From a virus (taxonomy: Duplodnaviria > Caudoviricetes), in IMG/VR virus record IMGVR_UViG_3300044831_000011, positions 1 through 59,696 of that record: a DNA stretch of 59,696 nt. One strand, given 5' to 3'. Both the position numbers and the translations under genes were made by a program. This document shows positions 4,348 through 30,496 of the stretch, piece after piece. Positions within the stretch are counted from its first letter, which is position 1. Each line of letters opens with the position of its first letter. Below the pieces are notes generated by a model. That model saw nothing but the letters and a program-made list of their open reading frames with translations. It ran no database searches and was not told the origin of the DNA.

Positions 4348-4453
4348 GCTTCCCCCAGCCAGGAACAGACTCTAAAAATCTTGTTCGCCAGCCAAAACGA
4401 TCCCGCTATTCCACTCAGGCCCACTCGCACAACCGCCATTTTTACCGCCGATT

Positions 4454-5218
4454 TCACGTATTCCACCACTTCTCCATCTGCTCGTAACTTTTGAAAAGAT
4501 TGCTGATCCAGTCGCAATATTTCTTGCCTTTTCCCGCAGGGTCGCGGCCCATGTGCCAATCAGATCGCGCCAGATTGTCGATGGCCACCTGTAAAAGCTC
4601 CGCGGCTTTGTCGTAATCGCCTTTTGTCAGCTTCAGGCAATCTTTCAGGCGCGTGAGTGCCGCTTTACGGCGCTGATCGGTCAATCGGTAGGTGAGCCTG
4701 TTTCTTTCGGTGGCACAGCAATAATGCTCAAAAGCCGCTTCAATAATTGCGTTTTCTTTTTTGTGCTCAAGGTCGTAATCTGTCGGAGTTTTGATATCAA
4801 TAATCACCGGCGTAGCCGGTACATCCGGCGCTGGGGTATTTTGTGGTAAATCTTGCACCTTTTCTTTACTATCCTTACCTCTCCTTACCTCTCCTAATGG
4901 AGTATCTTGTTCATTCGTAAGGGCTAGAAACTCGCTGTTGATTAGCTGTTGTATCGCTGTTGTAGCGTTGTGGCGTTCCCGTGGTAGCACTGCTGTAGCT
5001 CTGACGATCCACTGTTGATCGTTAGGGAGGTTTCTGCCGTGTCTTCCACGAAGCCGGCAGATAGCGTCCAGCATGTACCGCTGCATCACTGTTAGCTGGC
5101 TGAAATATTGATCCCAATCCTTGTCCTTGTAGTCACGAATCCAAGGCAAGTTTTTGGTATCTTTGGGCTGATATTTTTCCCAATTTTTGATCGCCAGATA
5201 CTTGAAGGTTTCAGCCAT
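4454..5218 (-). CDS. Replication initiator-like protein (lambda O / replisome organiser type)
   Basis: N-terminal IKNWEKYQ...PWIR motif, internal tandem repeats, C-terminal helical domain; lies upstream of the primase-helicase. Confidence 0.65.
   Translation of the reverse strand: MAETFKYLAIKNWEKYQPKDTKNLPWIRDYKDKDWDQYFSQLTVMQRYMLDAICRLRGRHGRNLPNDQQWIVRATAVLPRERHNATTAIQQLINSEFLALTNEQDTPLGEVRRGKDSKEKVQDLPQNTPAPDVPATPVIIDIKTPTDYDLEHKKENAIIEAAFEHYCCATERNRLTYRLTDQRRKAALTRLKDCLKLTKGDYDKAAELLQVAIDNLARSDWHMGRDPAGKGKKYCDWISNLFKSYEQMEKWWNT
4861..5000. other. Putative replication origin inside the initiator gene
   Basis: GCTGTTG at 4934, 4945 and 4956 (11-bp period) with degenerate copies; adjacent CCTTACCTCT x2 at 4873-4892. 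Confidence 0.55.
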
Positions 5219-5423
5219 TTTGTACTGCCAACTCCTGAGGTTCCACGGTCAAGGTTTTGTCCCGCCGCACTCTCTCGGTCCGCTCTGCAATTAAGCCGAC
5301 CTGAGCAACCACAAGCGCCATATCTGCTGACTCTCCGTTTAGGTCGATGTAGTCGGCCAGATTCCGCGCTGCGGTCCCAATGTCTGAAATCTGCATTCGT
5401 ATTACTCCTGGTTCCCGTTCCAA
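5211..5423 (-). CDS. Hypothetical protein
   Basis: Operon position; overlaps the initiator start. Confidence 0.5.
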   Translation of the reverse strand: MEREPGVIRMQISDIGTAARNLADYIDLNGESADMALVVAQVGLIAERTERVRRDKTLTVEPQELAVQNG

Positions 5424-5480
5424 AATGAAATCGCTTGGGTTTACAGGTTCGTGCCCTGTGGTTCGCTTTCTTCTGGGGCC

Positions 5481-6059
5481 CTACCCACCGTCACCGCTTC
5501 CTGTGGTTGCTCCGCCGGGTGAGCTCTCTTCTCCAAATGCTCTACACGGCATTAGCAGCCCGATTGAATCCTTCGCTGCGCTGGGCCGAACCACAATGGC
5601 CTGATCCGGGCCAGCGATATGAAGGTGAACAATCATTGACTCTTCTGTGAGCGCCATCGCCAGCTTGTAGAGCAATTCGGCATTCAGCGCGACAGTGAAG
5701 GGCGGGATTTTCTTGGGGATAATTTTTTCGTACTCAGGGAATACGCCTTTCACTGAATCAAACGTGGCGCTTTGCAGTCCTTCCACGCTGAAAGTGATTG
5801 TGTCTTGCTCCTGAAGAATGGCCAGCTCGGTCTTGCGCTTCTTTGCCTTCTTTGCCAGCTTTCGCGCTTCCTTGAAGGCATCGGTAGGTATAACTCCGCC
5901 CACGTCAGCATCTTCAACTTCGTGCGGGATAATTGCCAACATGTGGCCGTCCGTCGCCACAAGGCGCTTTTTGCTGATGTCATACAAGACACCGTTAAGG
6001 GTGTAGCGAGATTCTTCCTCGCTGGTAGCCATTTCAATTCTGCATAGAGGTAACTTCAA
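5481..6059 (-). CDS. Truncated DNA polymerase III beta-clamp-like protein
   Basis: SRYTLNGV, VATDGHMLA, FPEYEKIIP and terminal LLMP match DnaN motifs; only 192 aa. Confidence 0.75.
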   Translation of the reverse strand: MKLPLCRIEMATSEEESRYTLNGVLYDISKKRLVATDGHMLAIIPHEVEDADVGGVIPTDAFKEARKLAKKAKKRKTELAILQEQDTITFSVEGLQSATFDSVKGVFPEYEKIIPKKIPPFTVALNAELLYKLAMALTEESMIVHLHIAGPDQAIVVRPSAAKDSIGLLMPCRAFGEESSPGGATTGSGDGG

Positions 6060-6105
6060 ATTTGTTTCTCCTTCTTCACTTCGTTCTGAAACCCGCCCCC
6101 AAAAC

Positions 6106-6381
6106 TCAAGCGGCTAGATTTTGCTCACAAACTTTCGAGAGCCTGTGGGCCTGATGATGTTCTGGACAATGCCAGAGGTCACATTTAACGCACCTGATTG
6201 CGTGCATCAAACTTTCTTCGCCGCAAATCCACTTCTCACATTTCGAGCACTGAATAAGCGCCAGAATCGTGCAGCGGCGAAAGCTCGATGGTTCGCCGTC
6301 ATCCCCTGGTATCTCTACTTTCATCTGGCAGGGATGATCGACTGCGTTCTTTCCGGCCTGTTCTATTTCTTCCGCGATCAT
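6106..6381 (-). CDS. Cys/His-rich zinc-finger protein
   Basis: CxxC...C, CxxC...CxxH pattern. Confidence 0.6.
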   Translation of the reverse strand: MIAEEIEQAGKNAVDHPCQMKVEIPGDDGEPSSFRRCTILALIQCSKCEKWICGEESLMHAIRCVKCDLWHCPEHHQAHRLSKVCEQNLAA

Positions 6382-6383
6382 GG

Positions 6384-6908
6384 CTATTTGATCCTCAAGA
6401 ATCGAGTTCCGGGGTTTTCAATCACATCCACGCACTCAGGCATTGGCTTGCCGATTTTGAGCGCCTCTTTCATGGCGAGTTTGTCCATCTCTGGATCTCG
6501 TGCGCGCACAAACTCTGGCGCTTGAGCCGCGAGAGAGAAAATGTCCGTGCCCGGCTTGAGCTGAAAGGCGGTTGTGACTGCAGAAGTTTGGCCCCAAACT
6601 GTAAATTTGGTTGTCTTGAGTTTTCCCGCGAAGGCCTTGTCCACGGCGTAAAGCATCAACCCTTTAAGCCGGTCCGCGCCCTTTTCTAGTCCGTTGGCGC
6701 GATCGATCAGGCGCTTAGCTTCCGCCCTGCATACAGCGGCATCGTCTTCCAAAGACTTGACCACAATGCAGGAAGATTCGATTTTGTCTTTGCCGTCCGC
6801 CATGAAAACGGCAATGCGTTCTTCGATCTCCGGGGTTAACTCGCCATAGGTTTCAGCGAGAATGGATTCGATCTCAGTTGCCTCTAATGGAATGTCGTAA
6901 AGTTTCAT
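6384..6908 (-). CDS. Siphovirus Gp157-family protein
   Basis: MKLYDI start, coiled coil, DKLAMKEALKIG, LRIK end; adjacent to ERF. Confidence 0.8.
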   Translation of the reverse strand: MKLYDIPLEATEIESILAETYGELTPEIEERIAVFMADGKDKIESSCIVVKSLEDDAAVCRAEAKRLIDRANGLEKGADRLKGLMLYAVDKAFAGKLKTTKFTVWGQTSAVTTAFQLKPGTDIFSLAAQAPEFVRARDPEMDKLAMKEALKIGKPMPECVDVIENPGTRFLRIK

Positions 6909-7630
6909 GCGTTCCCCCGCGCCCAAGCGATAGCGGCTTCAAACTGCTTGCGCTGCATTTCCTCGGTCTTCTCTATCCCGATTGAGCCGAAGTAGTTGAG
7001 GACTTCATCTTTCGATTTGTTGCCCTCATTGACCGCATTCCAGAACATGGTTCGCTGGGTTGAAGTCACAAGGTCAGATACGGGCTGGGGCCGCGTAGGC
7101 CGGTTTATGCTCTGCTGAGGCCGCATGTTCATGGCTTCGCGTCCGGTCACAGCCGCATTGCCGTCATCGTCGTCTTCTCCGGCGATGTTGAGCATGGCTT
7201 GATAGGAATACCGTCTGCCATACGTAATCGCGCTACCGGCGGTCTGAGAATCAAACCTCTGTGCAGTCCCAGCCGGCAGCGTCAGATCGTTTTCAAACCA
7301 TTCGCCAGAGCCGTGCGCAATCATGGTCGTAACCGTGGCACCATGCTCATTGCTGGAAGGTGACTGGATTACCACCAGATCGTTATCACTGAGAGCCTCA
7401 TACGTGGCATCGATCAGCGCGGAAATGTCCGCATACTTCGATTTGTAGTGCGGGTTGACTGAATCTTTTTTTACCGGCTTGAATTTCTTCCGGGCTGCTG
7501 CCATCGCTTTGGCAATCTGGCCAATTGCACTTGACCGGCGCAACGGGCTAGACACAATGACCGGCTCAGGTTCGCGGCCAACAAAATCTTCCACGTCTCT
7601 ATCAGTGATTTCCAAACTATTGGTTGCCAT
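6905..7630 (-). CDS. erf: ERF-family single-strand annealing protein
   Basis: KDSVNPHYKSKYADI, HGSGEW, GSAITYGRRYS...EDDDDGN. Confidence 0.9.
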   Translation of the reverse strand: MATNSLEITDRDVEDFVGREPEPVIVSSPLRRSSAIGQIAKAMAAARKKFKPVKKDSVNPHYKSKYADISALIDATYEALSDNDLVVIQSPSSNEHGATVTTMIAHGSGEWFENDLTLPAGTAQRFDSQTAGSAITYGRRYSYQAMLNIAGEDDDDGNAAVTGREAMNMRPQQSINRPTRPQPVSDLVTSTQRTMFWNAVNEGNKSKDEVLNYFGSIGIEKTEEMQRKQFEAAIAWARGNA

Positions 7631-7679
7631 AGGGGTTAGCCTCTTTCCTTTCCGTCCTCTAAAAAGCCTTAGTCCGCAC

Positions 7680-8012
7680 TTAAACTTTGAATTTCGCCAT
7701 GATTACAGCGCGGGATTTTTCGAGTGATTTAATCTTGAGCAGTGCTCCCTCGAAATTGCCAAGGATGAGCATTTCCCGAACGGGATTGAATTGCTTGCTG
7801 AAATTATTGGCAGCGGTGCTGGCTTTTCTATCGACCATCTTTTCCCATTGATCGACAGTCTTTTTGGCAGCCCGGATGTTGGCTGGCATGTTGAGTTTTT
7901 CTGATCTCCGAATGTCATACGAAGACAAGGACAGTTCGCAGATACGCTGCTCAATAAACTTCTTGGCTTCGCGTCTCTCTTGATAGGTTGAAGGGTTTGA
8001 CATATCTCTCAC
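7680..8012 (-). CDS. Hypothetical protein
   Basis: ORF in operon orientation with upstream SD. Confidence 0.55.
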   Translation of the reverse strand: MRDMSNPSTYQERREAKKFIEQRICELSLSSYDIRRSEKLNMPANIRAAKKTVDQWEKMVDRKASTAANNFSKQFNPVREMLILGNFEGALLKIKSLEKSRAVIMAKFKV

Positions 8013-8037
8013 TTTCCTTTCACTCGCCGGATTACTA

Positions 8038-8220
8038 TCACGCGGTTACTTTTGGTTTACGCACGTAAACGCGCTTCTTGGGCTGCTCTGGCGTGTCATC
8101 GCCGATCAGAGTCAACAGTGTTTGGCTGAGGGCAGTGTCAAACTTTCCGACTTCGGACTCATCAGCTCCGCTCACGAAGTTGCCCCGTAGCGTTGTCAGA
8201 ACTTCTTTCAGATTCGCCAT
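8038..8220 (-). CDS. Hypothetical protein
   Basis: ORF with GGGAG upstream. Confidence 0.55.
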   Translation of the reverse strand: MANLKEVLTTLRGNFVSGADESEVGKFDTALSQTLLTLIGDDTPEQPKKRVYVRKPKVTA

Positions 8221-8256
8221 ATTCTTTTTCTCCCTGCAAGATTTGAACTTCTACAT

Positions 8257-8529
8257 TTAGCGCAGCTTTGTGGCTTCTACTTTGGCCAGCCGTCGATCAA
8301 TCCGCTTCAGCATTATTCTTGTCTGCTCCGTGTTGTATTGAATGCTCTGAATCATTGAGCGCACGTCACACTGGAGCATCTGAGAATTCTTGATATCAAT
8401 CAGCACGTTGCGGACAGACTCCAGCATTTCCAGATTTTGAGCCGCTGTATCCTGGGTTTCTCCGTAAGCCCAAGTTGGCAAATACTGACTATCTTTCCCG
8501 TTTCTGCGCCGCGTTATTTCTCCAGCCAT
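8257..8529 (-). CDS. Hypothetical coiled-coil protein
   Basis: Coupled to the upstream stop; GGAGG SD. Confidence 0.6.
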   Translation of the reverse strand: MAGEITRRRNGKDSQYLPTWAYGETQDTAAQNLEMLESVRNVLIDIKNSQMLQCDVRSMIQSIQYNTEQTRIMLKRIDRRLAKVEATKLR

Positions 8530-8738
8530 TACTTTCCTCCCAGATATTCGTTAACTGCCTTGATGACGCACTCTTGACCACATAAATGTTTCCCGAACCT
8601 GACGAGCCGTTTCACTGTCTTTTCATTCCAGCGATGAATGCGGAACTCGGTAAGTGTCTTGCTCATTAGCCACCAATGATTGACATCACCCTTCTTCTTG
8701 CCGCAGATGTCGCAATTTATTTGCTCAGTCCAACTCAC
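8529..8738 (-). CDS. Small zinc-binding protein (CDICG...NHWW...HLCGQEC)
   Basis: Motif recalled from Acidobacteria hypothetical proteins; GTG start with GAGG upstream. Confidence 0.6.
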   Translation of the reverse strand: MSWTEQINCDICGKKKGDVNHWWLMSKTLTEFRIHRWNEKTVKRLVRFGKHLCGQECVIKAVNEYLGGK

Positions 8739-8853
8739 CAGAAGAACCTCGCCACCCGATAGCAGAAGTAGCCCACGCCCCAAAAGAAAGCGCCCCAGAT
8801 CCAGCCAATCACCACGCCACGCATCGGCCCCGCTTCCCGTTCTGATTCCCACA

Positions 8854-9081
8854 TCAACATGTGGCTACCTGCTTCCGGCGCTTTCGATTATTTGCCCTCG
8901 CCGCCGCTGCCCAAAAGTTAGCGTCGAACTCTTGGCGGCAATCTTCACTGCACACAATCTTTTTGACCTTGCCATTCTTTTCCGAAACGAGTGCTTCACT
9001 GCCAATCGGAATAACTGCATGGCACTCGCTACAGCGAACCTTTTTGGCGTAAACCTTGGGCTCAAAATCGCTTCCAATCAC
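8854..9081 (-). CDS. Small zinc-finger protein
   Basis: CSEC...CSEDC. Confidence 0.6.
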   Translation of the reverse strand: MIGSDFEPKVYAKKVRCSECHAVIPIGSEALVSEKNGKVKKIVCSEDCRQEFDANFWAAAARANNRKRRKQVATC

Positions 9082-9261
9082 CCTCTCACCTCGTATCTGT
9101 CAGTTCCGGGCCCGTTATCTGTCTTGTTTTCCGCAGTTCGCGCATACATAGGCGTGCACAATCTTCTTGTCTTCCGGGTCGCGCTTCATCCATTTGGGGT
9201 TAGGCTTGGCGCAGCAATTCATCACTGGCCGCATCTGTGACGTATAAGGAATAATTTGCAA

Positions 9262-10122
9262 TTACCACCTCCCGTTACTGTCGTGAATTGGGTCGCCCAT
9301 GTTTGGAAGTTCGCGGTTCAGCCGCATCTCGAAGTCAATGCGCTGCTTCAGGCTGACTCTTTCCACTGTGGCGAGAAGGTTTTCTATCGTGGTGCCTTGA
9401 TATTCAGGGGCGCAATCCGAGGCCGTGGACTGCACCCCTGTCTCTACCGATGCGGTGAGCCCCGGCAAAATTTGGGAGTCAGGAGGTGGGCCTTGATACC
9501 CACTGGTCATACAGCCACTCACTTGCGCAACTGGTGGCTTTGCGCTTGAGGGGGACACGCGATCTCTTGTGTATGATCCGGCGCGTGTGTCTACCTCGCG
9601 TCCTTCCGCGATGCCACTGACTCCCTCTCTGCCCAATGGAACGGGCAAACTTAAGAAGTCAGTGGGGCGACCTACAGAGCTGTGCACAGCGCATTCGGAA
9701 CGTTTACGACTCCCCGTACTGACTTCATCCTCAGTATTAAGCGCCTCCACATGAGGGCACTCAGACCGAGAACTTTGAAGCGGCGAAGCTGGGATACACA
9801 CAACCTCGCCGCTGCTGCCAACCTGAAGGCTATCTATGACCGGCGCACTGCCGGTAGCCTGGTCGGCAACGTCTAAAATGTTTGCTGTGCTCAACTGCCG
9901 GCATTCCTGACACTTCAGCCGGGCAATGATCTGTGCTGCTGTGAAGTGGCAATTGAAATCGCCTCGCACGCCACAGAGCGCGACAAACGTATTCCCGCCA
10001 TTCGCCGCAGAGGCATCCGTTTCCAGGTGGTACGGCCCTGCTTCAACTTCTGAAACCCATGCGTATTTCTTGGGATTTGGGGCGAAGACTCCTGAGAGCA
10101 GCACGTCCATTAACTGACTCAT
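9262..10122 (-). CDS. Hypothetical protein: N-terminal Zn-binding domain and a middle encoded by structured RNA-like DNA
   Basis: H...LCG...CQEC N-terminus; central part is hairpin-rich with atypical composition. Confidence 0.5.
   Translation of the reverse strand: MSQLMDVLLSGVFAPNPKKYAWVSEVEAGPYHLETDASAANGGNTFVALCGVRGDFNCHFTAAQIIARLKCQECRQLSTANILDVADQATGSAPVIDSLQVGSSGEVVCIPASPLQSSRSECPHVEALNTEDEVSTGSRKRSECAVHSSVGRPTDFLSLPVPLGREGVSGIAEGREVDTRAGSYTRDRVSPSSAKPPVAQVSGCMTSGYQGPPPDSQILPGLTASVETGVQSTASDCAPEYQGTTIENLLATVERVSLKQRIDFEMRLNRELPNMGDPIHDSNGRW
9474..9625 (-). ncRNA. tRNA-like RNA, copy B
   Basis: GGGAGTCAGTGG-CA-TCGC[GGAAGGAC]GCGA ... A-GTGGG[TATCAAGG]CCCAC-CTCCTGACTCCC; same loops as copy A, different stems. 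Confidence 0.7.
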
Positions 10123-10478
10123 GCCTGCACCGCCTCTGCCTTTTTAAGGGCGGCTCTTCCGGCGGCAAGAATGCATCCTTTATGCGCGACGCACTCCACA
10201 GCAAGGCGGCATTCATAGCAGCATCCAACGATGTAACCATTTTCTCTACGCGGCCTCTCGGCTTCCTGCTTGATGGCTACTGGTGGAAGCTCGACGGAGC
10301 GCGGGAAGCTGCTGCCATTTACCTCGTGAAGTCCGCTCTTGGTATCATGGCAATAAATATTTCGCGCCACATTCCGGTATGCCCTTAACGATTCATCCTG
10401 CGTTACCGTGGCCCAGCATCCTGTGCAGAGAGTCTCCTGTGAGTCCTTTAAGGGAGTGGTCATTGGCCACCGCACCAT
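10119..10478 (-). CDS. Cys-rich hypothetical protein
   Basis: Coupled ORF with CxxC motifs. Confidence 0.45.
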   Translation of the reverse strand: MVRWPMTTPLKDSQETLCTGCWATVTQDESLRAYRNVARNIYCHDTKSGLHEVNGSSFPRSVELPPVAIKQEAERPRRENGYIVGCCYECRLAVECVAHKGCILAAGRAALKKAEAVQA

Positions 10479-10765
10479 TTCCGCATGGCCTTGAGATCAG
10501 CAGCATTGAACTTTTCACAGCCGATTCTGAAAGTGGCCTTTGTGCGCTTTACCTGGAAATCTTGGAATTTTGGCTTTTCGTCTAGGGGCTGCGCTTTGGC
10601 ATGAGCTACATCCGCGCCTCCTAAAACATTTCTTACGGCATTCTTCGTCATGCGGTAAAAGAGATTCCCATTGCCACACCAATCAACAACCAAATGAGTA
10701 GAGGTCAGCCAGCGAGTACTGCTGCCCCAACCCGGCCGCGTGCTCAATTCAATTTTCTTTGCCAT
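10460..10765 (-). CDS. Hypothetical protein
   Basis: MAKKIEL start with GGAG SD. Confidence 0.55.
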   Translation of the reverse strand: MAKKIELSTRPGWGSSTRWLTSTHLVVDWCGNGNLFYRMTKNAVRNVLGGADVAHAKAQPLDEKPKFQDFQVKRTKATFRIGCEKFNAADLKAMRKWCGGQ

Positions 10766-10808
10766 CTCTCCGTCTCCTCTTCTTTCCGAACTTAGCGGGG
10801 CCGTGCGG

Positions 10809-11033
10809 TTACGCAGCGTCGTCTTCGTGTGGAATGTGCTTTTCCTGGCTGTCCAGCTTTTCGATTTCGTTCTGCAATTCCCACGCGACATCCGGGTGCA
10901 TTACGCCACCTTCGCGGTGAAGTCCCAAGGCTGCAGCGAACACGTCAACAATCGCCATCTGCGCCGAAAGGATTTCATTGCGCCTGCGAAGATCGACGAT
11001 TTCCTGCTTTGCTTGCATCAAAATATGTTTCAT
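10809..11033 (-). CDS. Hypothetical protein
   Basis: AAGGAG SD; coiled coil. Confidence 0.6.
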   Translation of the reverse strand: MKHILMQAKQEIVDLRRRNEILSAQMAIVDVFAAALGLHREGGVMHPDVAWELQNEIEKLDSQEKHIPHEDDAA

Positions 11034-11145
11034 TTATTTCTCCTTTTTTGAATTAGCGGGGCTGAGTATCCAGCCCCCTATCTGCCTGTTTGTGTCGCCC
11101 AGAGCTGCCAGGCCCTTCGGAGCAATCCCACTCAAGCAAAAATCG

Positions 11146-11580
11146 TTAGCGCGTTCTCCGCGCGTGTTCCATAAAGTCTTCCGTTTTGGAAATGGCAGCG
11201 CCCGCTTTGGAGATGGCAGCGCGGATTGGCGCAAGTTGGGCGATGGATGCCTTAAGGCGAATCAGCTCATTCTCGGCATGGTTCAGCGCGGCCAGCATGT
11301 CTGGGGCTGCGGCGATGAGATGGGCATTGGCTTTGTATTCGCCAAAGTCCACATCGTCAGGCCAAACGCCCTCGTAAACATCAATCGAGTGGACGCTGAA
11401 ATATTCGCTTGGGTCGGCAATGGCGGAGGCCATGCGGAGCGTAAAAGCTCCATTCTCTTCTTCGTAATCAATCATCCACGGGCCGGGAGTGTGTGCGGAC
11501 TGCTTTGTGGGGATATCACTATGAGCAGCAGACGTAATCTGTCTGTTATTCGATTCGGATGTATTGTGGTGGCGTTCCAT
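11146..11580 (-). CDS. Phage protein of the HTPGPW...ANAxLIAAAP family
   Basis: HTPGPW and ANAHLIAAAPDML motifs. Confidence 0.75.
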   Translation of the reverse strand: MERHHNTSESNNRQITSAAHSDIPTKQSAHTPGPWMIDYEEENGAFTLRMASAIADPSEYFSVHSIDVYEGVWPDDVDFGEYKANAHLIAAAPDMLAALNHAENELIRLKASIAQLAPIRAAISKAGAAISKTEDFMEHARRTR

Positions 11581-11758: not shown

Positions 11759-11971
11759 TTAAGCGGTCTTTTCGTAAAGAACACGCCGTGAAAGTCCAAT
11801 TTTGCAAAGAATTAACTCGCCTGGGTCGCTCTTGCCGCGATATACATTGGACAAATAAGACTCGGAAATCCCAAGCTCTTGTTCCGCGAATTCACGCGCC
11901 GTCCGCTTCCCCTGTTTCTTCTTTAGAAGGTCAACAACTTCGGGCGCGGTAAGCATCTGGTTTCTTTTCAC
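11759..11971 (-). CDS. Cro-like XRE helix-turn-helix regulator
   Basis: TAREFAEQELGISESYLSNVYRG HTH; probable leaderless GTG start. Confidence 0.8.
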   Translation of the reverse strand: MKRNQMLTAPEVVDLLKKKQGKRTAREFAEQELGISESYLSNVYRGKSDPGELILCKIGLSRRVLYEKTA

Positions 11972-11978
11972 AACGTGA

Positions 11979-12006
11979 ATACTACTACACTTTTCCAACT
12001 TGTCAA
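11979..12006 (-). promoter_or_regulatory. Leftward early sigma70-type promoter
   Basis: TTGACA-16 bp-TAGTAT; predicted +1 coincides with GTG at 11971. Confidence 0.6.
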
Positions 12007-12039
12007 GCACTCTGGAAGGATTTTTTTCTGGCTGTGTTT

Positions 12040-13233
12040 TCATGCGGTTACACCCCTTCCATTTCTCCGCTGTGGAAATTCGGACTGAGGCTTCTTGCGA
12101 TCCGGGTCTATCAGGTCAAGCGCGGCGGCTTTTACCGTAGTCCGATGCTGGTCATAGTATCTGGTCATTTCATCTGAGACATGGCCAGCTACGGAACGAA
12201 CGGTTTCAATCGGCACCCCCGATTCAAGCATTTTGGTTATCGGCTGATTGCGGAAGTTTCGCCGGCTGATCCTGAAGGGAATGATTTTCAATTCCAGCGC
12301 CTTGGCTACCAGCTTGTTCCATTGGGCATTCGTCCAGGATGAGGACGCGGGACGCAACGGATCAAACAGGCCGCGCTTTACCCGGAACGGAAATACATAG
12401 TGGTGCGGTTGCGTTGATCCGCGCTTTGCCGCCCTTTCCAGCATGCGCTCAACCATCTTTTTGCCGCGTATATTTAGAGGGATGATACGAGGCCGATGTT
12501 CGTTTTTGGCTCCCAGCGGCACAGTGATTGTGGCAGGTTCGCCAGCAAGGTCAATGTCTGATAGCTGCATCAGGCGCAATTCAACGCCGTAAGCGGTCGT
12601 ATTGTTGGAAAGGGAAGCTTCCCAATAGGCACCCCACCAGCTTTGGTCACTCGCGGCCAACTCAAAAAAATCATCTTCCTGTTTGACGGTTAACACTCTG
12701 GGCTTGCCACGGCGCGGAACTTGCAGCGTTCGATAGTGTTCCGCAATCGGTTGCCATAGTCCGGCCTTCCGCATGATCTGAGAAAGGGTATTCAGGTCGT
12801 GGTTCACGTTGGCAGGACTGTACAGCTTTTTATTGATGCGCTGATATTCCTGAATGTGTCCGATGTGGATTTGATCTAGCCTCTCCGGCCATGGAAAGGA
12901 ATTGAGGCGCAGAATGTAATCGTCATAGCATTTGATCGTGCTTTCCGCTACGTATTCGCTATGTTGTTCTTTCCATTTTTCAGCCGCTTGTTTGAGTGGT
13001 AATTCCTTCAGGTCAGTAGCTTTTTCCACGATGGCCAGCCTTGCGCGTTCGGCGCTTACTTCAAATTCTGTTCTGAATGCCCCAAATCTTATCGCCTTAA
13101 TTTCGCTTTTACCAGACACAAAATCTTGGGTATTCAGCTCTGAAGGAACGCTAGCCATAGGTTTTCTTGCGTTTAAATTTACTGGCTCTTTCATAGGAAC
13201 TGCCCAGAGGGCAGAAGTGGATGAGTGCGTCAT
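12040..13233 (-). CDS. int: Tyrosine recombinase/integrase with atypical catalytic motifs
   Basis: Core-binding domain, KNEHRPRIIPL, RxxR box, GH-x8-Y (AGHVSDEMTRYY). Confidence 0.85.
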   Translation of the reverse strand: MTHSSTSALWAVPMKEPVNLNARKPMASVPSELNTQDFVSGKSEIKAIRFGAFRTEFEVSAERARLAIVEKATDLKELPLKQAAEKWKEQHSEYVAESTIKCYDDYILRLNSFPWPERLDQIHIGHIQEYQRINKKLYSPANVNHDLNTLSQIMRKAGLWQPIAEHYRTLQVPRRGKPRVLTVKQEDDFFELAASDQSWWGAYWEASLSNNTTAYGVELRLMQLSDIDLAGEPATITVPLGAKNEHRPRIIPLNIRGKKMVERMLERAAKRGSTQPHHYVFPFRVKRGLFDPLRPASSSWTNAQWNKLVAKALELKIIPFRISRRNFRNQPITKMLESGVPIETVRSVAGHVSDEMTRYYDQHRTTVKAAALDLIDPDRKKPQSEFPQRRNGRGVTA

Positions 13234-14711: not shown

Positions 14712-14741
14712 ATGACAAATAACAATCTCTGCCCTTATCAT
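14712..14741 (+). promoter_or_regulatory. Promoter for the peptide/7-TM cassette
   Basis: ATGACA-18 bp-TATCAT with predicted +1 at ATG 14749; inverted repeat TGCCCTT/AAGGGCA spans the -10. Confidence 0.5.
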
Positions 14742-14748
14742 GAAGGGC

Positions 14749-14889
14749 ATGAAAACACGCATTCTTTTCGCAATCATAGTGTTAGCCGCCGTGGGCTTTG
14801 GAACGTGTCATGCGTCCAAGGTTCGAGAACTCAAACAGCAAACAGACGGGCCACCGTGCATTCCGCACATGATCTGTCCTGTGGGGTAA
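14749..14889 (+). CDS. Secreted pre-peptide (46 aa) with C-terminal Pro/Cys motif
   Basis: MKTRILFAIIVLAAVGFGTCHA signal peptide followed by SKVRELKQQTDGPPCIPHMICPVG; ends 4 nt before the 7-TM gene. Confidence 0.75.
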   Translation: MKTRILFAIIVLAAVGFGTCHASKVRELKQQTDGPPCIPHMICPVG

Positions 14890-14893
14890 CAGC

Positions 14894-15559
14894 ATGACGG
14901 CGGCTTATCTCGCATGGGCCGCCGAACTGCTCCTTGAATGCGCTGGAGCATACTGCAACCTCAAGCGCTCCAAACTTCTCTCGCTGATCCTGATTCTCTG
15001 CGCCATCTCGGATATGGCCACGTTCCTGGTCTTCCAGCTTTTCAGCCGCACGGTTTACGCATGGTCTTATTGGGGCGCGCACTCGCTAAAGGGCTTACTG
15101 CTGATCTGGCTGGGCTGCTCCATATGTGGCATGTTCGCTGCCGAGAAAGACAAGCTTAAGATCGTCTTTGGTAGCGGCTTCATCTCAGCTTCGATTATGT
15201 CTTTTGTGATGTTCGCGTTTTTCCGTGGCGATTCGCTGAAAGACCGACTGCTAGATGCTGAGATCGTCGCCAGCATGATTCTGTTGGCCATGGTGGCCTT
15301 GGGCTGGCTGGGCAGAAGCTCTTACCTCTCGCCAGCGTGGAAGGTGATTACGGCGGGATTCGTGCTCATGGTCGGCAGCGATTTGCTGTTTACTGCGCTC
15401 TGGATGTTTTGGGGTGGAGCGCGGCACTGGTATCCTCTGGGCACCATCACGGCCTATCTGGTTTGGGTAGCAGGGCCATTGATGCCCCATCGGTTGAAGG
15501 ATTGCCGACTGAGTTTAGGCCAGCGGGTGCAGGAAGCGGAAAGGGTTTCAGTATGCTGA
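14894..15559 (+). CDS. Seven-transmembrane membrane protein (candidate peptide receptor)
   Basis: Seven hydrophobic segments, YAWSYW at the start of TM3, short charged C-terminal tail. Confidence 0.8.
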   Translation: MTAAYLAWAAELLLECAGAYCNLKRSKLLSLILILCAISDMATFLVFQLFSRTVYAWSYWGAHSLKGLLLIWLGCSICGMFAAEKDKLKIVFGSGFISASIMSFVMFAFFRGDSLKDRLLDAEIVASMILLAMVALGWLGRSSYLSPAWKVITAGFVLMVGSDLLFTALWMFWGGARHWYPLGTITAYLVWVAGPLMPHRLKDCRLSLGQRVQEAERVSVC

Positions 15560-15711
15560 AAGCATGGGTGCTGTTCAATCTGGACGGCAAGCCAGAATTT
15601 ATTGATTCAGACTTGACCGAAGAAGCGTTTAAGAATTGGTATCTGAAATATCTAGATCAGGGCTGGAAAGCAAAATTCTGCGAAATAAATCCAATTTTGG
15701 ACGCGAGATAG
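15553..15711 (+). CDS. Hypothetical protein (52 aa)
   Basis: MLKAWVLFN..., overlaps the 7-TM stop. Confidence 0.5.
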   Translation: MLKAWVLFNLDGKPEFIDSDLTEEAFKNWYLKYLDQGWKAKFCEINPILDAR

Positions 15712-15932: not shown

Positions 15933-16022
15933 AAACGTAACGTGCTAGTGTAAATCCCAGAGCTGCCAGGCTCCATTTTTTAGCAATTCCCTTCTCAGGC
16001 AAGAGACGAAAGTTTCTTGTCC

Positions 16023-17489
16023 ATGCTCCCGAACTCACAAAACGGAATTAAGCCTCGCATTTCTGTCATCAGCGTTTGCTCTGGCATCGGTACTGATGCT
16101 GTAGCGTGGCAGCCGCTTGGCTGGAAGCATCTTTGCTTTGCCGAGATTGAGAAATTCCCCAGCGCGGTACTCGCGCATCACTGGCCGCATGTAATCAACC
16201 GTGGCGATTTCACAAAAATTGGAGATGAATACCGTGGAGCAGCAGACCTTCTGGTTGGCGGAACACCTTGCCAGTCTTTCAGTGTCGCCGGTCTCAGAGG
16301 CGGATTGGCAGATGATCGTGGCAACCTGGCCCTCGAATTTCTTAGGCTTGCTGACCGCACACGGCCCCGATGGGTGGTCTGGGAGAACGTCCCTGGCGTG
16401 TTGTCGAGCGATGGAGGACGGGACTTTGGTTCCATTCTCGGAGGGCTGGGGAAACTCGGGTACGGGTGGGCCTACAGAATCCTGGACGCTCAATACTTCG
16501 GAGTTCCACAGCGCCGCCGTCGCGTCTTCGTTGTCGGATGTCTTGGAGACTGGCGACGTGCCGCAGCGGTACTTTTTGAGCGCCACAGCCTGCAAGGGAA
16601 TCATCCGCCGAGCCGAGAAAAGGGGCAAGGATTTACCCATGAACTTGCGCCGGGCATTGGAGCAAGTGGCAGAGGGTTCGAGCGGGCAGGAGAAACACGC
16701 GGACAAGATCCAGTAGTAGCGGAGGAATTATGCCGACCATTTGCGATGGATGCAATGTTAGACCGCCATTTGAGCACAGATGCCACGGTGACCGATCATT
16801 TGTCGCCGGGGAGTCAACTGGATTGCAGTGCGAGTGCCAAGAGTGCAAAGAGCCAAGCCCGGAAGAACTCGCTGAGTTCGAAAAGTCGCTTAAATCCTGA
16901 GGTCTCCGGTGCCGTATCTTCCAAATGGGCCAAAGGAACCGGAGGGCCGTCAGGAGATGAATGCTACAACCTCGTAGCTCACCCACTCCGCGGCGATGGC
17001 TTCGATGCCTCAGAAGATGGCACTGGCAGAGGAACGCCGCTTATCGCAGCGGCACTGAAAGCTAATAGTGGCCGGAACAAAATTGAATCGCAATATCTCG
17101 CCATTCGCACAGCCCAGACCTCAGTCAATGGCCACGGAGTAGCAGAAGACGTTGCGCACACCTTGGACGGCGCACAAGGGCAGGCCGTCTGCTTCCACGA
17201 AAACCAGAGAGCAGAAGTCACGCTAAACGATACCGCAGGAAGCCTGAAGGTAGGCGGCGGTAAACCGGGACAGGGATACCCGGCAGTTCAAAGTGGCATG
17301 GCCGTCCGCAGACTAACTCCCCGAGAATGTGAGCGCCTCCAGGGACTACCCGATGACTTTACTTTAGTTCCCTTCAATGGAAAGACAGCTTCAGATGGTC
17401 CGCGATACAAAGCCATAGGCAACGGTATGGCAATGCCAGTCCTGCGCTGGATTGGTGAACGCATCGCCGCTGTAGAGGGTGCCCTGTGA
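16023..17489 (+). CDS. dcm: C5 cytosine DNA methyltransferase with modular variable region
   Basis: CSGIG, GGTPCQSFS, WENVPG, QRRRRVF, RRLTPRECERLQG, YKAIGN. Confidence 0.95.
   Translation: MLPNSQNGIKPRISVISVCSGIGTDAVAWQPLGWKHLCFAEIEKFPSAVLAHHWPHVINRGDFTKIGDEYRGAADLLVGGTPCQSFSVAGLRGGLADDRGNLALEFLRLADRTRPRWVVWENVPGVLSSDGGRDFGSILGGLGKLGYGWAYRILDAQYFGVPQRRRRVFVVGCLGDWRRAAAVLFERHSLQGNHPPSREKGQGFTHELAPGIGASGRGFERAGETRGQDPVVAEELCRPFAMDAMLDRHLSTDATVTDHLSPGSQLDCSASAKSAKSQARKNSLSSKSRLNPEVSGAVSSKWAKGTGGPSGDECYNLVAHPLRGDGFDASEDGTGRGTPLIAAALKANSGRNKIESQYLAIRTAQTSVNGHGVAEDVAHTLDGAQGQAVCFHENQRAEVTLNDTAGSLKVGGGKPGQGYPAVQSGMAVRRLTPRECERLQGLPDDFTLVPFNGKTASDGPRYKAIGNGMAMPVLRWIGERIAAVEGAL
16225..16716 (+). CDS. 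Nested out-of-frame gene in dcm (M.EcoHK31I beta-like arrangement)
   Basis: Stop-free +1 frame of about 164 aa ending in SLSDVLETGDVPQRYFLSATACKGIIRRAEKRGK. Confidence 0.65.
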   Translation: MNTVEQQTFWLAEHLASLSVSPVSEADWQMIVATWPSNFLGLLTAHGPDGWSGRTSLACCRAMEDGTLVPFSEGWGNSGTGGPTESWTLNTSEFHSAAVASSLSDVLETGDVPQRYFLSATACKGIIRRAEKRGKDLPMNLRRALEQVAEGSSGQEKHADKIQ

Positions 17490-19892: not shown

Positions 19893-20342
19893 GTGAATGT
19901 GATCCCCATTTCGATTAGCGATGCGTGTGAGTTTGTCCGGCGCGTCCATAGGCATCACAAGCCTCCGCAGGGAGCTAAATTCGCCATTGCCATTGAGGAA
20001 GCAGGGCAGGTTTGCGGAGTTTCGATTGTGGGCAGGCCAGTATCTCGGCACTTGGATGATGGGTGGACGGCTGAAGTAACGCGGCTGGCCACAGATGGCA
20101 GAAAGAACGCTTGCTCAATGCTTTACTCCGCAAGTTGGCGAGCTGCCAGAGCGATGGGTTATCGGCGCATGGTGACTTACATCCTGCAATCTGAAACAGG
20201 AACTAGCTTAATTGCGGCGGGATGGAAGCTGATTTCAGAATGCGGCGGCGGATCGTGGAGCAGAACATCGCGGCCCAGAATCGACAAGGCACCATTGCAA
20301 AATAAAATCAGATTTGAAGTAAAGCAGGAGCGTGAACCATGA
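19893..20342 (+). CDS. XF1762-family / Mom-like GNAT-fold protein
   Basis: HRHH, GRPVSR.LDDG, EVTRL.TDG..NACS.LY, TYIL..E.G.SL.AAGW. Confidence 0.8.
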   Translation: MNVIPISISDACEFVRRVHRHHKPPQGAKFAIAIEEAGQVCGVSIVGRPVSRHLDDGWTAEVTRLATDGRKNACSMLYSASWRAARAMGYRRMVTYILQSETGTSLIAAGWKLISECGGGSWSRTSRPRIDKAPLQNKIRFEVKQEREP

Positions 20343-20723: not shown

Positions 20724-21025
20724 ACGTGCCGGATGAACGCCTGAGAGCCGCAGCCGATCTTATACGAAAGATTCAAGCCTGTGATATTTCAGATTGTCTG
20801 CTTTGCGCTGAGCAAGCGGAGTTGGTAGCTCGCTTCGCCAAAGAACGCGAGGACTCCGCTATGCGGGAAGCAGCGGGGCTGGTGTGCGGACTATGCGGTA
20901 ATCAGACGATAGCTAAAGCGCAACTATTTGGCAATGTTTGGGGCCATCCTGTGGGAAGAGATAATTATGTGCCTTGCAAAGCCGCTCCGATCTACGAACA
21001 TCTGGCAAGGAAAGGCGATCTATGA
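20720..21025 (+). CDS. Cys-rich hypothetical protein
   Basis: AAGGAG SD; coupled. Confidence 0.6.
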   Translation: MNVPDERLRAAADLIRKIQACDISDCLLCAEQAELVARFAKEREDSAMREAAGLVCGLCGNQTIAKAQLFGNVWGHPVGRDNYVPCKAAPIYEHLARKGDL

Positions 21026-21327
21026 AAATCAGTTTATTGGTTTTGTTGGTGATTCTTGTTGGGTGTGATCCGGTTACGAGAACTAGGCCGGTCGGAGAAT
21101 CAAAAATAGTTACCGTTGAAGAAAGCTGCACTCATTTTAGCTATTGCTTTACGTGTATGCCCGGATTCGACGGAAAGAATGAATGCGGATATAAAGCATC
21201 ATCTCTCTGTCCCGGAAACCAGAAGGTTCAAATATCTATTACGCCGATGGAACTAACTCGCAAAAGTGGAAAGACAGAAATTGAGCAACAGCGGCGGACG
21301 ATCAAAGAAATTACTGCATGTGAATAA
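21022..21327 (+). CDS. Lipoprotein
   Basis: MKISLLVLLVILVG-C lipobox. Confidence 0.7.
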   Translation: MKISLLVLLVILVGCDPVTRTRPVGESKIVTVEESCTHFSYCFTCMPGFDGKNECGYKASSLCPGNQKVQISITPMELTRKSGKTEIEQQRRTIKEITACE

Positions 21328-24081: not shown

Positions 24082-24420
24082 TTAGCTTTCGGGGAGCACT
24101 GGGGCTGGTTTTGGGAGCACCGCCATTGCCTGTTCATGATTATCATCCTTCACGCTATGCGCCAGGACAAAGCCCATGATGATACCAATGAAGCTCATGT
24201 ATGTGGGATCTAGCCGATGGAACCAGTGCATGATGGTTCCCATGAGCGTAAAGAACGCCAAAAATGTTGTGGTGCGGCCCTGTAGCGCGCTAAAAAGTGG
24301 ATTTCCGCCCGTCGACGTCACCCCTGGCAGATTGGCGTGTACTTGAGAGGTGGCGTCGACCATTGGCGTATGGTTGCGGTCGACGTCACCCCTGGGTATC
24401 AAAGTTTCAGCCGCGCTCAT
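24082..24420 (-). CDS. Holin-like membrane protein
   Basis: Two TM segments; lysis module. Confidence 0.5.
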   Translation of the reverse strand: MSAAETLIPRGDVDRNHTPMVDATSQVHANLPGVTSTGGNPLFSALQGRTTTFLAFFTLMGTIMHWFHRLDPTYMSFIGIIMGFVLAHSVKDDNHEQAMAVLPKPAPVLPES

Positions 24421-25103
24421 TTAGGCTCACTCCCAAAGTGGACGCTCACGCCAGCAAATACCGCCTTATTCTCGGCGCCCATAAACAAGCCCCATTTTGA
24501 CTGAATCCGGTAATCAATGAACAGAGCAGGGGTGTAGCCTTCACTTCCGCCGGCACGCGCAACTCCCAGGCCGGCCGTCCACCGCGGCACGGCGCCCGCG
24601 GCTTTCCATTCGTTGTTGGATTTCGTCAATGAGGCAATCTGGGCCTTGTAGTCCAGCGCGTCAGCATCGCATTTCGTCAGCCCTGCTTCTGTGAGTTGGC
24701 AGGACTTCTCCCGCTGGCCTAAGAGCACCATCTGAGGATCGGATAGCAGGGTGTAGTTCGTGTTGGCAGCGCCCGGTAAGGCTTTCTGTACATCCGGCGG
24801 CAATTCGGCCTTGGTGACTTGCTGAGGGGAAGGCTGGCCTGCTGGCGATACTACAGGCTGAATGACCGTAACAGCTTGTTTGGCTGTCATGGTGGCAATC
24901 TGCTGCTGTACCTGATCCTTGAATGCCTCAAAGGTTTTGTCACGGTCCGTCAGAGCTTGGTTTTTGGCCGCGATGACCTGATCCGTGGCCTTCTGCTGCT
25001 CCTCAGCCCTTGCCAGAGAGACGGAATACTTGATGGCAAAGAAGCCGATGATCAGCACCAGCGCGCCCACGATGACGAGATAGATTTTGTGGAGTTTGGT
25101 CAT
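24417..25103 (-). CDS. Spanin-like protein
   Basis: N-terminal TM anchor, coiled coil, C-terminal beta-rich segment; lysis module. Confidence 0.5.
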   Translation of the reverse strand: MTKLHKIYLVIVGALVLIIGFFAIKYSVSLARAEEQQKATDQVIAAKNQALTDRDKTFEAFKDQVQQQIATMTAKQAVTVIQPVVSPAGQPSPQQVTKAELPPDVQKALPGAANTNYTLLSDPQMVLLGQREKSCQLTEAGLTKCDADALDYKAQIASLTKSNNEWKAAGAVPRWTAGLGVARAGGSEGYTPALFIDYRIQSKWGLFMGAENKAVFAGVSVHFGSEPK

Positions 25104-25300
25104 ACCAGCTTTTTAACCTTCCCCGCGCTGTTGACCAATATCGCCTCTCCCTTTTTGGCCAGAGCTTCCGCTTTCTGCGCCTCAGAACGGAAGAGATCGA
25201 GAATCAAATCGACCAAGTTGTAGTTTTTGAGGTATTCCACCAGCGATGTGACGAAACCGCCGACTGCGAGTCCGATAATCAATGCTAACCAGGGATTCAT
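25100..25300 (-). CDS. Small membrane protein
   Basis: N-terminal TM; AAGGAG SD. Confidence 0.6.
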   Translation of the reverse strand: MNPWLALIIGLAVGGFVTSLVEYLKNYNLVDLILDLFRSEAQKAEALAKKGEAILVNSAGKVKKLV

Positions 25301-25380
25301 TGGTGCTCCTTTTTGTGCTATATTTGATGCCGTGATTCTTAACCGTTCATCCCGATCGTCAAGTTCCCGCTAGCCATAGC

Positions 25381-25475
25381 GGAGGGTTGGGACAGTCCGG
25401 TCTACTCCAGTGCATTGCTAACGCACCGAAGCCCCTAACAAGGCGACACAGGTTCAAATCCTGTACCCTCCGCCA
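25381..25475 (+). tRNA. tRNA-Ser(GCT)
   Basis: GGAGGGT/ACCCTCC acceptor, loop TTGCTAA, long variable arm, GGTTCAAATCC, G73, CCA; extended -10 TGCTATATT upstream. Confidence 0.9.
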
Positions 25476-25484
25476 AAGTTTTAT

Positions 25485-25573
25485 GGAAGGTTCCGCTAAA
25501 TGGTAGGCAACTAGTCCTGAAAACTAGGGTATGGTGATGAGCCATAGGGGTTCGATTCCTCCACCTTCCGCCA
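25485..25573 (+). tRNA. tRNA-Ser(TGA) with C33
   Basis: GGAAGGT/ACCTTCC acceptor, CTAGT-CCTGAAA-ACTAG, long variable arm, GGTTCGATTCC, G73, CCA. Confidence 0.85.
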
Positions 25574-30495: not shown

Positions 30496-30496
30496 C

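Follow-up and report, generated by a model that had tools for sequence, protein, structure and literature searches.

A conserved two-gene unit for an exported-type mini-protein and a seven-helix membrane protein in a lineage of soil phages

Introduction

Bacterial signalling, immunity to bacteriocins and some forms of phage exclusion depend on an exported peptide that is matched to a cognate membrane protein, and to our knowledge the phage examples of such pairs described to date all use protein families other than those discussed here. The present locus raises the question of whether two adjoining genes of a temperate phage form such a pair, and what its task would be. The genes encode a 46-residue mini-protein with an export-type signal sequence and a 221-residue protein with seven transmembrane (TM) helices, referred to as the 7TM protein. 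They are located in IMG/VR record IMGVR_UViG_3300044831_000011, and the window analysed is this whole record, which represents a complete virus, is 59,696 bp long and carries direct terminal repeats. A first-pass annotation, made from the letters alone, had read the two genes as a ligand–receptor pair. Comparison of related loci supports a cognate peptide/membrane-protein pair at the level of sequence. As a tentative explanation, a type-specific envelope complex of the exclusion type is put forward, which would act in the producing cell.

The pair is carried by a lineage of soil phages. Both proteins are orphans, and their families and their phage setting are new, whereas the general type of system, in which an exported peptide has a cognate partner in the membrane, is already known. 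No comparable phage peptide/membrane pair was found in the literature covered on superinfection exclusion, secreted peptides or lysis–lysogeny, supplementary files aside; the papers and reviews on the last two subjects dealt with arbitrium and quorum sensing.

The mini-protein gene and its linkage to the membrane protein gene

The mini-protein gene extends from position 14749 to 14889 on the plus strand, and an alternative in-frame ATG lies 9 nucleotides (nt) earlier, at 14740. Reading of the open reading frame (ORF) bore out the initial description of 46 residues with a signal sequence and a C-terminal two-cysteine motif. The ATG at 14749 lines up with the start in the closest relative, locus L001, and the TAA stop ends at 14889. 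The predicted product starts with the basic n-region MKTR. Next come some 16 hydrophobic residues closed by G-x-C (Cys20), then a basic stretch that is conserved and a linker whose length varies. Its C-terminus reads DGPPCIPHMICPVG, contains two invariant cysteines and represents the motif type DGPxC-x-P...CP. In 13 distinct aligned peptides, C20, R26, D33, G34, P35, C37, P39, C43 and P44 are invariant; R26 is replaced in L019, a locus added after this alignment. An invariant frame is in this way combined with a hypervariable Cys loop of 5 to 8 residues. The mature peptide would comprise about 24–27 residues and is hydrophilic and proline-rich, with a net charge of +1 to +4.

This ORF nearly always escapes gene prediction: a profile search of 5.8 billion proteins returned two matches only. 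Averaged over pairs, differences in the peptide frame amount to 0.38, 0.26 and 0.58 at the first, second and third codon position, respectively, and the median ratio of non-synonymous to synonymous substitution rates (dN/dS) is 0.25, based on 49 usable pairs out of 78, the rest being saturated. Because third positions are the most variable and dN/dS is low, the small ORF is a genuine gene on which purifying selection acts. Each of 15 of the 16 loci has a single copy of the motif GPxC[ILV]P-x(2-8)-CP, and L013 carries a variant without Gly-Pro. The string DGPPCIP was present in no paper within reach of the literature search, which excluded supplementary files. The Atlas gives a score of 0.77 for P0103, a homologue of the peptide.

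The gene for the 7TM protein occupies positions 14894 to 15559 on the plus strand. Since the TAA ends at 14889 and the next ATG starts at 14894, the gap between the two genes is 4 nt. DNA was collected for 16 homologue loci, namely 5+1 from a viral collection and 10 from metagenomes, with L012 repeating L010 and L014 repeating L004. The scan of the viral collection with P0029 yielded one added locus, L019, while scans of the same collection with the single proteins P0094, P0072, P0048, P0046 and P0057 found no locus. In all 16 loci, a small ORF of this type is located 2–16 nt upstream of the 7TM gene, an arrangement that the first-pass annotation had proposed to look for in homologues; in L013 this ORF is cut by the contig end, with the C-terminal motif present. 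The count leaves aside distant members of the 7TM family (22–35% identity).

At the junction of the two genes (14881 to 14896, plus strand), the last codons (GGG or AGG) and the stop codon form a G-rich, Shine-Dalgarno-like stretch 6–10 nt before the ATG of the 7TM gene. Most loci read AGGT(A/G)A-NNGC-ATG at this point, an arrangement that suggests translational coupling of the two genes. The genes flanking the pair differ between loci on both sides. Given that the flanks vary and the pair stays, the two genes form a conserved unit, surrounded by mosaic DNA in a single phage lineage. No regulator, kinase or DNA-binding gene is conserved beside the pair in the junctions and flanks compared.

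A distinctly unlikely alternative is that the two genes are unrelated neighbours whose products do not interact and which stay together only through common descent within a narrow group of phages. It draws on the synteny of all loci, which belong to one lineage: in the five loci with enough flank (the window, L002, L004, L008 and L011), the integrase gene is found upstream on the other strand, and 11 loci share a zinc-ribbon gene. However, both flanks have been reshuffled and the pair has never been separated, and the spacing of a few nt is conserved together with the Shine-Dalgarno-like junction.

Downstream, the ATG of a 52-residue ORF (15553 to 15711, plus strand) lies within the last nucleotides of the 7TM gene, and this ORF delimits the cassette on its 3' side. 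It is placed outside the conserved unit, as the downstream gene differs between loci in the 14 junctions compared. The start of this gene usually overlaps the 7TM stop, although the identity of the gene varies by locus. A recurrent junction of the GTGATGTGA type is found at the 3' end of the 7TM gene, both in the window (15545–15560) and in L002, L004, L005, L006, L008, L011 and L015. Its ATG or GTG is the overlapping start of the varying downstream gene, and the junction looks like a module boundary reused by recombination.

The seven-helix membrane protein

The 7TM protein is modelled by AlphaFold2 with seven long helices and a C-terminal helix at residues 201–220 (predicted local distance difference test 81.5, predicted template modelling score 0.75). 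In 39 homologues, adding up the mean lysine plus arginine counts of the loops gives 11.05 for one side of the membrane and 0.21 for the other. On the basis of this charge difference, the N-terminus and loops 2, 4 and 6 are assigned to the periplasm and the C-terminal helix to the cytoplasm. Model and charge topology agree with the seven TM segments first read from the sequence.

A word-indexed search yielded 52 proteins resembling the 7TM protein at 42–100% identity, all of them metagenomic and either unnamed or labelled 'hypothetical'. An exhaustive HMMER search of 1.84 billion cluster representatives gave 46 family representatives at E ≤ 1e-3, each 103–312 residues long, and the family is therefore considered rare and always stand-alone; longer or fused forms were not found, which is weak evidence. 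An output domain is absent from all 46 representatives. No Pfam, PHROG, NCBIfam or PADLOC family reached its threshold for the 7TM protein. PADLOC assigned 0 families to the peptide and the 7TM protein, PHROG contained no matching superinfection exclusion (Sie) family, and tblastn gave no match in GenBank phages or plasmids. The PADLOC and PHROG results speak to membership of described families and leave aside whether the pair might work in the manner of an exclusion system.

Similarity to a known transporter or enzyme, which would have spoken against a receptor-like role, was looked for with Pfam, a PDB profile search, Foldseek and VIA, and none emerged. The best E-value of the PDB profile search with the family was 0.22. 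Foldseek returned no match at E ≤ 1e-3, and its top rows were G-protein-coupled receptors (GPCRs), LYCHOS and microbial rhodopsins at TM-scores of 0.4–0.5. The best VIA comparisons, with the same kinds of protein, reached Z-scores of 10.5–10.2 with a root mean square deviation of 3.9–6.9 Å over 171–198 residues, where values below about 13 are common for helical bundles. In the Atlas, unnamed clusters scored 0.92–0.93, while HisKA_7TM and MASE3/4 scored 0.80–0.82, which is the chance level. The modelled fold thus generically resembles the GPCR/rhodopsin-like arrangement, without a specific relative. Shared with 7TM receptors and microbial rhodopsins are the seven-helix bundle, the outside N-terminus, the inside C-terminus and a short cytoplasmic eighth helix. 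The likeness differs from homology in that its scores (Z about 10, deviation 4–7 Å, TM-scores 0.4–0.5) are those of helical arrangement and identities are 5–16%; unlike for GPCRs, G-protein or transducer partners do not occur in bacteria or in this phage. Assignment as a microbial rhodopsin was rejected, since helix 7 (residues 174–196) lacks the retinal-binding lysine; the corresponding Foldseek matches had TM-scores of about 0.48 and E > 0.1.

At least 90% of the 41 sequences in the wide family alignment, which reaches down to 22% identity, share the residues W8, E11, L14, E15, G18, L29, D40, Y55 and W191. Among these, E11 and E15 in TM1 and D40 in TM2 are membrane-buried and located near mid-membrane. 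The motifs C75-x-x-C78 and R177-H178 are confined to the close subfamily. These residues bear on whether the 7TM protein could process, modify or export the peptide from within the membrane, comparable to AgrB acting on AgrD or to the maturation of ribosomally synthesised and post-translationally modified peptides, with the finished product exerting its effect elsewhere. The buried E11, E15 and D40 could be catalytic, the two motifs of the close subfamily could add to this, and the two genes are strictly adjacent. Such an enzyme–substrate relation is nevertheless considered very unlikely, as CxxC and R177-H178 are not kept in the wider family, the CxxC is situated in the cytoplasmic half of TM3 by the model, away from an exported peptide, and neither Pfam nor the PDB profile search revealed AgrB, CPBP, rhomboid, DsbB/VKOR or any other enzyme.

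Two further candidates were dropped. A thiol-oxidoreductase built around C75-x-x-C78 was abandoned because of its limited conservation and its location towards the cytoplasmic side. Membership in CPBP/Abi (PF02517), a family marked by EExxxR, FxxxH and HxxxN motifs, was discarded, as there is no Pfam match and the wide family has E11-x3-E15 without a conserved histidine.

Possible specificity within the pair

The close subfamily alignment includes 39 of the 52 7TM proteins. Its most conserved parts are the periplasmic segments 167–182 and 109–124, with mean pairwise identities of 0.72 and 0.63, respectively. The most variable segment is also periplasmic and spans residues 45–60, that is, the end of TM2, loop 2 and the start of TM3 (identity 0.31). 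This pattern mirrors that of the peptide with its invariant frame and hypervariable Cys loop.

Distances in the peptide Cys loop and in 7TM residues 45–60 are correlated across 13 loci (Mantel r 0.52, partial r 0.49, p ~0.0008) and across 14 loci (r 0.45, partial r 0.39, p 0.001), where the partial coefficient controls for the rest of the 7TM protein. The other ten regions of the 7TM protein are non-significant with 14 loci, including TM1 and TM2, which are nearer on the DNA. Peptide–receptor co-variation, named in the first-pass annotation as something to look for, is thereby found between the Cys loop and loop 2 at a partial r of 0.39–0.49 (p ~0.001). At the level of individual loci, three peptides with the sequence GPRCLP correspond to three 7TM proteins whose loop 2 is shorter by 3 residues.

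The 7TM gene itself is a mosaic. L002 shares 87–89% identity with L008 and L011 over residues 64–196, compared with 30–32% over residues 1–63 and 54–58% in the peptide. L006 and L007 show the same division, with 85% over residues 64–196, 38% over residues 1–63 and 56% in the peptide. As identity splits at residue 63/64, the peptide gene plus the 5' third of the 7TM gene are understood as a variable cassette on a conserved core. Recombination breakpoints lie inside the 7TM gene and none between the two genes. For two non-interacting neighbours, co-variation could be a consequence of linkage, but the breakpoints are those within the 7TM gene, and the co-variation peaks at loop 2 and not at TM1 or TM2.

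A constant frame with a hypervariable loop, and a receptor segment whose variation matches that loop and is swapped along with it as a cassette, form the evolutionary signature of a specificity system. The sequence data support a cognate peptide/membrane-protein pair. Of the ligand–receptor proposal, the conserved, co-evolving unit has stood and a cognate relation is plausible; an output side is what the proposal lacks, with no such domain in the 46 representatives and no conserved regulator adjoining.

Predicted export and possible retention of the peptide

A cysteine closes the hydrophobic segment in 15 of 15 distinct peptides, and this conservation at the end of a signal sequence suggests a tethered peptide. 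A PROSITE-like lipobox is present in 9 of the 13 scored peptides. It is missing from the window peptide (FGT-C), L001, L005 and L015 and, by reading, from L013 (LAI-C) and L019 (VGV-C), which brings the overall count to 9 of 15 distinct peptides. The phage itself encodes two canonical lipoprotein ORFs, so that the lipobox of the host is probably ordinary. One of them (21022–21327, plus strand; LVILVGC) comprises 101 residues with a Cys-rich mature part and is located in the same accessory block as the pair; the other (53248 to 53919) is on the minus strand and has the sequence LGILAC.

The signal-sequence part of the peptide co-varies with the C-tail of the 7TM protein (r 0.42, p 0.001) and with TM6, which would fit an uncleaved anchor. 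The peptide may therefore be a lipoprotein, a free periplasmic peptide or a signal-anchored one, and two of these three fates would keep it on the producing cell. For the earlier idea of signalling by a secreted peptide, this means that the export-type sequence is retained, whereas a diffusible ligand gains no support, with an invariant cysteine that fits a lipobox in 9 of 15 peptides and would tether them.

In L004, L007, L008 and L009, a second cysteine precedes the conserved one by four residues (LAAC/LAVC-S/T-W/F-G/A-A-C). These signal sequences each contain two possible lipobox cysteines.

Expression signals

A candidate sigma-70-like promoter, ATGACA-18-TATCAT, is located at 14712 to 14741 on the plus strand. 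It agrees with the consensus at 10 of 12 positions, and its -10 hexamer ends 7 nt before the ATG at 14749; a transcript from it would be leaderless or nearly so. Taken alone, the site is non-significant, with 7 such sites in 5.5 kb compared with 4.1 ± 1.9 in shuffles. A -10 hexamer that ends 5–7 nt before the peptide ATG and scores at least 8 of 12 recurs in 6 of 13 loci, namely the window and L002 (10 each), L001, L006 and L007 (9 each) and L005 (8). The background is low, as 1.4% of the 1973 ATGs of the window score at least 8 and 0.46% at least 9. The arrangement is missing in L003, L004, L008–L011 and L015, some of which have a Shine-Dalgarno-like G-run instead, and the DNA around the promoter is otherwise unconserved between loci. 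The proposed own, leaderless promoter hence gains from its recurrence and not from the site in the window. Leaderless units with their own promoter recall lambda cI transcribed from PRM and the so-called 'moron' genes.

The inverted repeat noticed over the -10 hexamer does exist. Its arms, TGCCCTT-N6-AAGGGCA (14730–36 and 14743–49), cover both this hexamer and the start codon. It is unique in the genome with one match, although 24 of 100 shuffles also give at least one, and it is not conserved in related loci. The repeat is short, with 7-nt arms, and may be a chance product.

Function of the pair

From the genes, their linkage and conservation, the topology, the mosaic structure and the co-variation, we infer a course of events in which export, disulfide formation, tethering, binding and above all function are conditional. 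The mini-protein would be exported by its N-terminal signal sequence and would probably stay at the membrane, either through a lipid on the conserved cysteine or by an anchor sequence that is not cleaved. Its short, proline-rich C-terminal loop would be closed by a disulfide that joins the pair of invariant cysteines. The 7TM protein, probably translationally coupled to the peptide, would turn its N-terminal third towards it, and loop 2 (residues 45–60), on the periplasmic side of the 7TM protein, would receive the loop of the cognate peptide. The complex would then work type-specifically in the cell that makes it. Its most likely job would be superinfection exclusion, with the entry of related phages blocked at the periplasm/inner-membrane step.

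Exclusion is tentatively favoured because the peptide looks tethered, because no transducer or regulator is attached or adjacent, and because position and promoter fit prophage-expressed accessory genes. A further reason is the existence of inner-membrane exclusion proteins with deeply diverged types, such as SieA of phage P22. SieA is reported to be a phage inner-membrane exclusion protein with strongly diverged types that acts at the periplasm/inner-membrane step (PMC10883804). It resembles the 7TM protein in being an integral inner-membrane protein of a temperate phage without an enzymatic domain, and the podovirus-like look of the window phage is a further likeness. SieA differs in having 162–164 residues and three predicted TM segments and in working alone, whereas the present protein has seven helices and an obligatory exported peptide partner. 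No PHROG match and thus no sequence relation links the two, and exclusion is proposed here by analogy.

For the peptide, the closest comparison is Llp of phage T5, a small disulfide-bearing exclusion lipoprotein. It is described as an outer-membrane lipoprotein with a Cys11–Cys58 disulfide that jams the receptor FhuA (PMC9586334; bioRxiv 10.64898/2026.03.26.714494). Both Llp and Cor, like the present peptide, are small phage-encoded exported proteins with a cysteine at the signal end and a disulfide, which is a prediction in the present case. Llp differs in its gene location, next to the gene for the receptor-binding protein, and in lacking a partner in the membrane. The present peptide is about half the size of Llp, lies next to a 7TM gene in an accessory region and has no sequence relation to it. 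If exclusion is the true function, it would represent a two-part design with built-in type specificity.

Several points weigh against exclusion by a tethered complex. The co-variation comes from 13–14 related loci with few independent events, the Mantel test is liberal on related sequences, and the correlation over whole proteins is weak (Pearson 0.35; Spearman 0.115, not significant). The co-variation could also stem from physical linkage, since the peptide gene adjoins the 5' part of the 7TM gene and a recombination breakpoint would lie in TM3. The window's own peptide lacks a lipobox, with a threonine before the cysteine, and 6 of 15 distinct peptides have a beta-branched residue (T, V or I) at this position. 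All 13 scored peptides are compatible with a signal-peptidase-I site, C-x-[AS], although proline follows the site in L013 and L019. Since the lipobox fails and this site fits, a free periplasmic peptide is just as likely as a tethered one in the window. The pair also belongs to a tightly packed co-directional operon in which the next gene overlaps the 7TM stop, so that expression in the prophage appears uncertain. Finally, exclusion was chosen by prior and not by homology, as PHROG and PADLOC are without a match, and we know of no exclusion system made of two co-varying phage proteins.

A somewhat unlikely alternative is that the peptide is a secreted, cationic, disulfide-looped toxin against cells without the phage and the 7TM protein its immunity protein, which would safeguard the producer by binding the peptide or shielding its target. 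A small peptide gene followed by a gene for a polytopic protein is the classic bacteriocin–immunity layout. Sec-dependent class II bacteriocins in particular are encoded by a gene for a small cationic disulfide peptide followed by one for a multi-pass membrane protein of about 220 residues, and form polymorphic cognate pairs. The small exported peptide, the following polytopic protein of about 220 residues, the tight coupling, the candidate promoter and the net charge of +1 to +4 match this layout. The hypervariable co-varying cassette on a conserved core is likewise seen in polymorphic toxin–immunity pairs, and a toxin would explain it at least as well as exclusion does. However, the mature peptide has no amphipathic or hydrophobic stretch, and it is shorter and more hydrophilic than the known membrane-active classes. 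It has no double-glycine leader, and no exporter gene occurs nearby in the flanks compared. The 7TM protein shows no match to CPBP/Abi or another Pfam family, and to no immunity family. The pair is phage-borne, and the outer membrane of a host that is maybe diderm would keep the peptide in the periplasm. The invariant cysteine at the signal end would be left unexplained.

Another reading, considered unlikely, holds that the peptide is released, maybe trimmed to the Cys loop, and sensed at the cell surface by the cognate 7TM protein, with 'pherotypes' informing lysis–lysogeny or exclusion. The succession of signal peptide, conserved basic pro-region, variable linker and constrained C-terminal loop would suit a pre-peptide, and the GPCR/rhodopsin-like bundle with its cytoplasmic 'helix 8' a receptor. 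The co-variation of the peptide loop with an extracytoplasmic receptor loop, and the hypervariable cassette that spans both, would be explained at least as well as by exclusion, and the pair lies near the integrase. On the other side, the 7TM protein is always stand-alone in the 46 family members, and its neighbourhood lacks a conserved gene for a kinase, a regulator or a DNA-binding protein. Its fold matches are unspecific, and the Atlas scores of sensor domains are at the chance level. The lipobox-like cysteine points to tethering, and a peptide of 2.6 kDa would not pass the outer membrane unaided.

Two known communication systems allow a comparison. The agr specificity region is a hypervariable span over the peptide and part of the neighbouring membrane protein. 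The present locus resembles agr in its pre-peptide of about 46 residues with a functional cysteine, the adjoining polytopic membrane protein and the hypervariable cassette. It differs in that AgrB, histidine-kinase and response-regulator domains are not found here by Pfam (E ≤ 1 in the window; E ≤ 0.01 in 41 family members), that a Sec-type signal and two cysteines for a disulfide replace the amphipathic leader and thiolactone, and that the gene order is another. Phage-borne agr genes with membrane components, carried by phage phiCDHM1, have been reported (PMC3901668). The arbitrium system AimP/AimR/AimX shares with the present locus a small peptide of a temperate phage with a Sec signal, a C-terminus that would be the functional part here too, and cognate types (PMC13220667). 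The arbitrium receptor is a cytoplasmic tetratricopeptide repeat (TPR) DNA-binding protein of the RRNPP type, which senses an imported peptide. The partner here is a 7TM protein without a TPR or helix-turn-helix (HTH) domain by Pfam, and the architecture is distinct from arbitrium, as the first-pass annotation had stated. If signalling holds, soil phages would possess a second way to communicate, one based in the membrane. In its fullest form, likewise unlikely, a stand-alone receptor of GPCR-like architecture would sense the disulfide-looped peptide outside the cytoplasm, and the cassettes would serve as pherotypes among soil phages, for communication or kin recognition by a mechanism unrelated to that of arbitrium.

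Genome context

The window phage is temperate and has a podovirus-like look, based on a weak match to an internal virion protein. Its left arm (210 to 11580, minus strand) is devoted to replication and recombination, with a helicase–methylase fusion and genes for a primase and RusA-like, Gam-like and Erf-like proteins. An HTH gene follows on the same strand (11759 to 12043), and then a gene for a tyrosine integrase (12040 to 13233, minus strand). The latter is about 1.5 kb from the pair, in accordance with the nearness to the integrase region noted initially. The accessory block on the plus strand (13385 to about 23600) contains many small genes, the pair and DNA-modification genes, including those for a C5 DNA methyltransferase (16017 to 17489), an HNH endonuclease and a Mom-like protein (19893 to 20342). 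The structural genes are encoded at 31.3–58.8 kb on the minus strand.

The suggested recurrence of similar pairs in Acidobacteria was not borne out: no relative turned up when species-representative genomes were scanned twice, once with an alignment of the 7TM protein and once with the major capsid protein.

The lysis region is situated at about 24.1–27.5 kb (24082–27472) on the minus strand. It contains a T4-lysozyme-like ORF (26372 to 26782), several small membrane ORFs (24082 to 24420, 25100 to 25300 and 25799 to 26164) and an ORF of 228 residues with an N-terminal TM segment (24417 to 25103), which could be an i-spanin. In a scan of the window, no canonical lipobox ORF that could serve as an o-spanin was found near the lysis genes. 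With the lysis region located elsewhere, the pair is assigned to the accessory, DNA-modification side of the phage and not to a lysis cassette.

This location bears on the extremely unlikely case that the pair is a lysis accessory, either holin/antiholin or spanin-like. O-spanins are typically small, proline-rich lipoproteins, and the canonical one is missing near the lysis genes. In addition, residues 85–165 of the 7TM protein weakly match lambda-S holins (PF05106, E 1.7e-3; phrog_126, E 2.2e-4; TIGR01594, 18.4 bits). These matches stay under the cut-offs, with 19.2 bits compared with 23.8 for PF05106 and 18.4 compared with 55.05 for TIGR01594. They occur in one (PF05106) and two (phrog_126) of 41 family members, so that the lambda-S holin family was rejected and the matches taken as hydrophobic noise. 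The endolysin and its neighbouring membrane-protein genes are 10 kb away on the other strand. In spanin systems, moreover, the small lipoprotein gene is embedded in or next to a type-II i-spanin gene in the lysis cassette, and neither is the case here, where the partner is a 7TM protein.

The DNA-modification gene set is unusually rich, with the helicase–methylase fusion, the C5 methyltransferase, the HNH and the Mom-like genes. The fusion is an ORF of 749 residues (210–2459, minus strand) with a helicase match at residues 22–745 (phrog_16) and a C-terminal DNA-methyltransferase match at residues 464–739 (phrog_67). Two adjoining tRNA-Ser genes with the anticodons GCT and TGA (25381–25573, plus strand) are found between the accessory block and the lysis region. 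Beside the structural module, the ORFs 30458–31099 (plus strand) and 31326–32624 (minus strand) start with Sec-type signals (…AISGFAQ and …LAGIASAQ, respectively). Such signals are unusual for virion proteins, and the two products may be secreted or surface accessory proteins.

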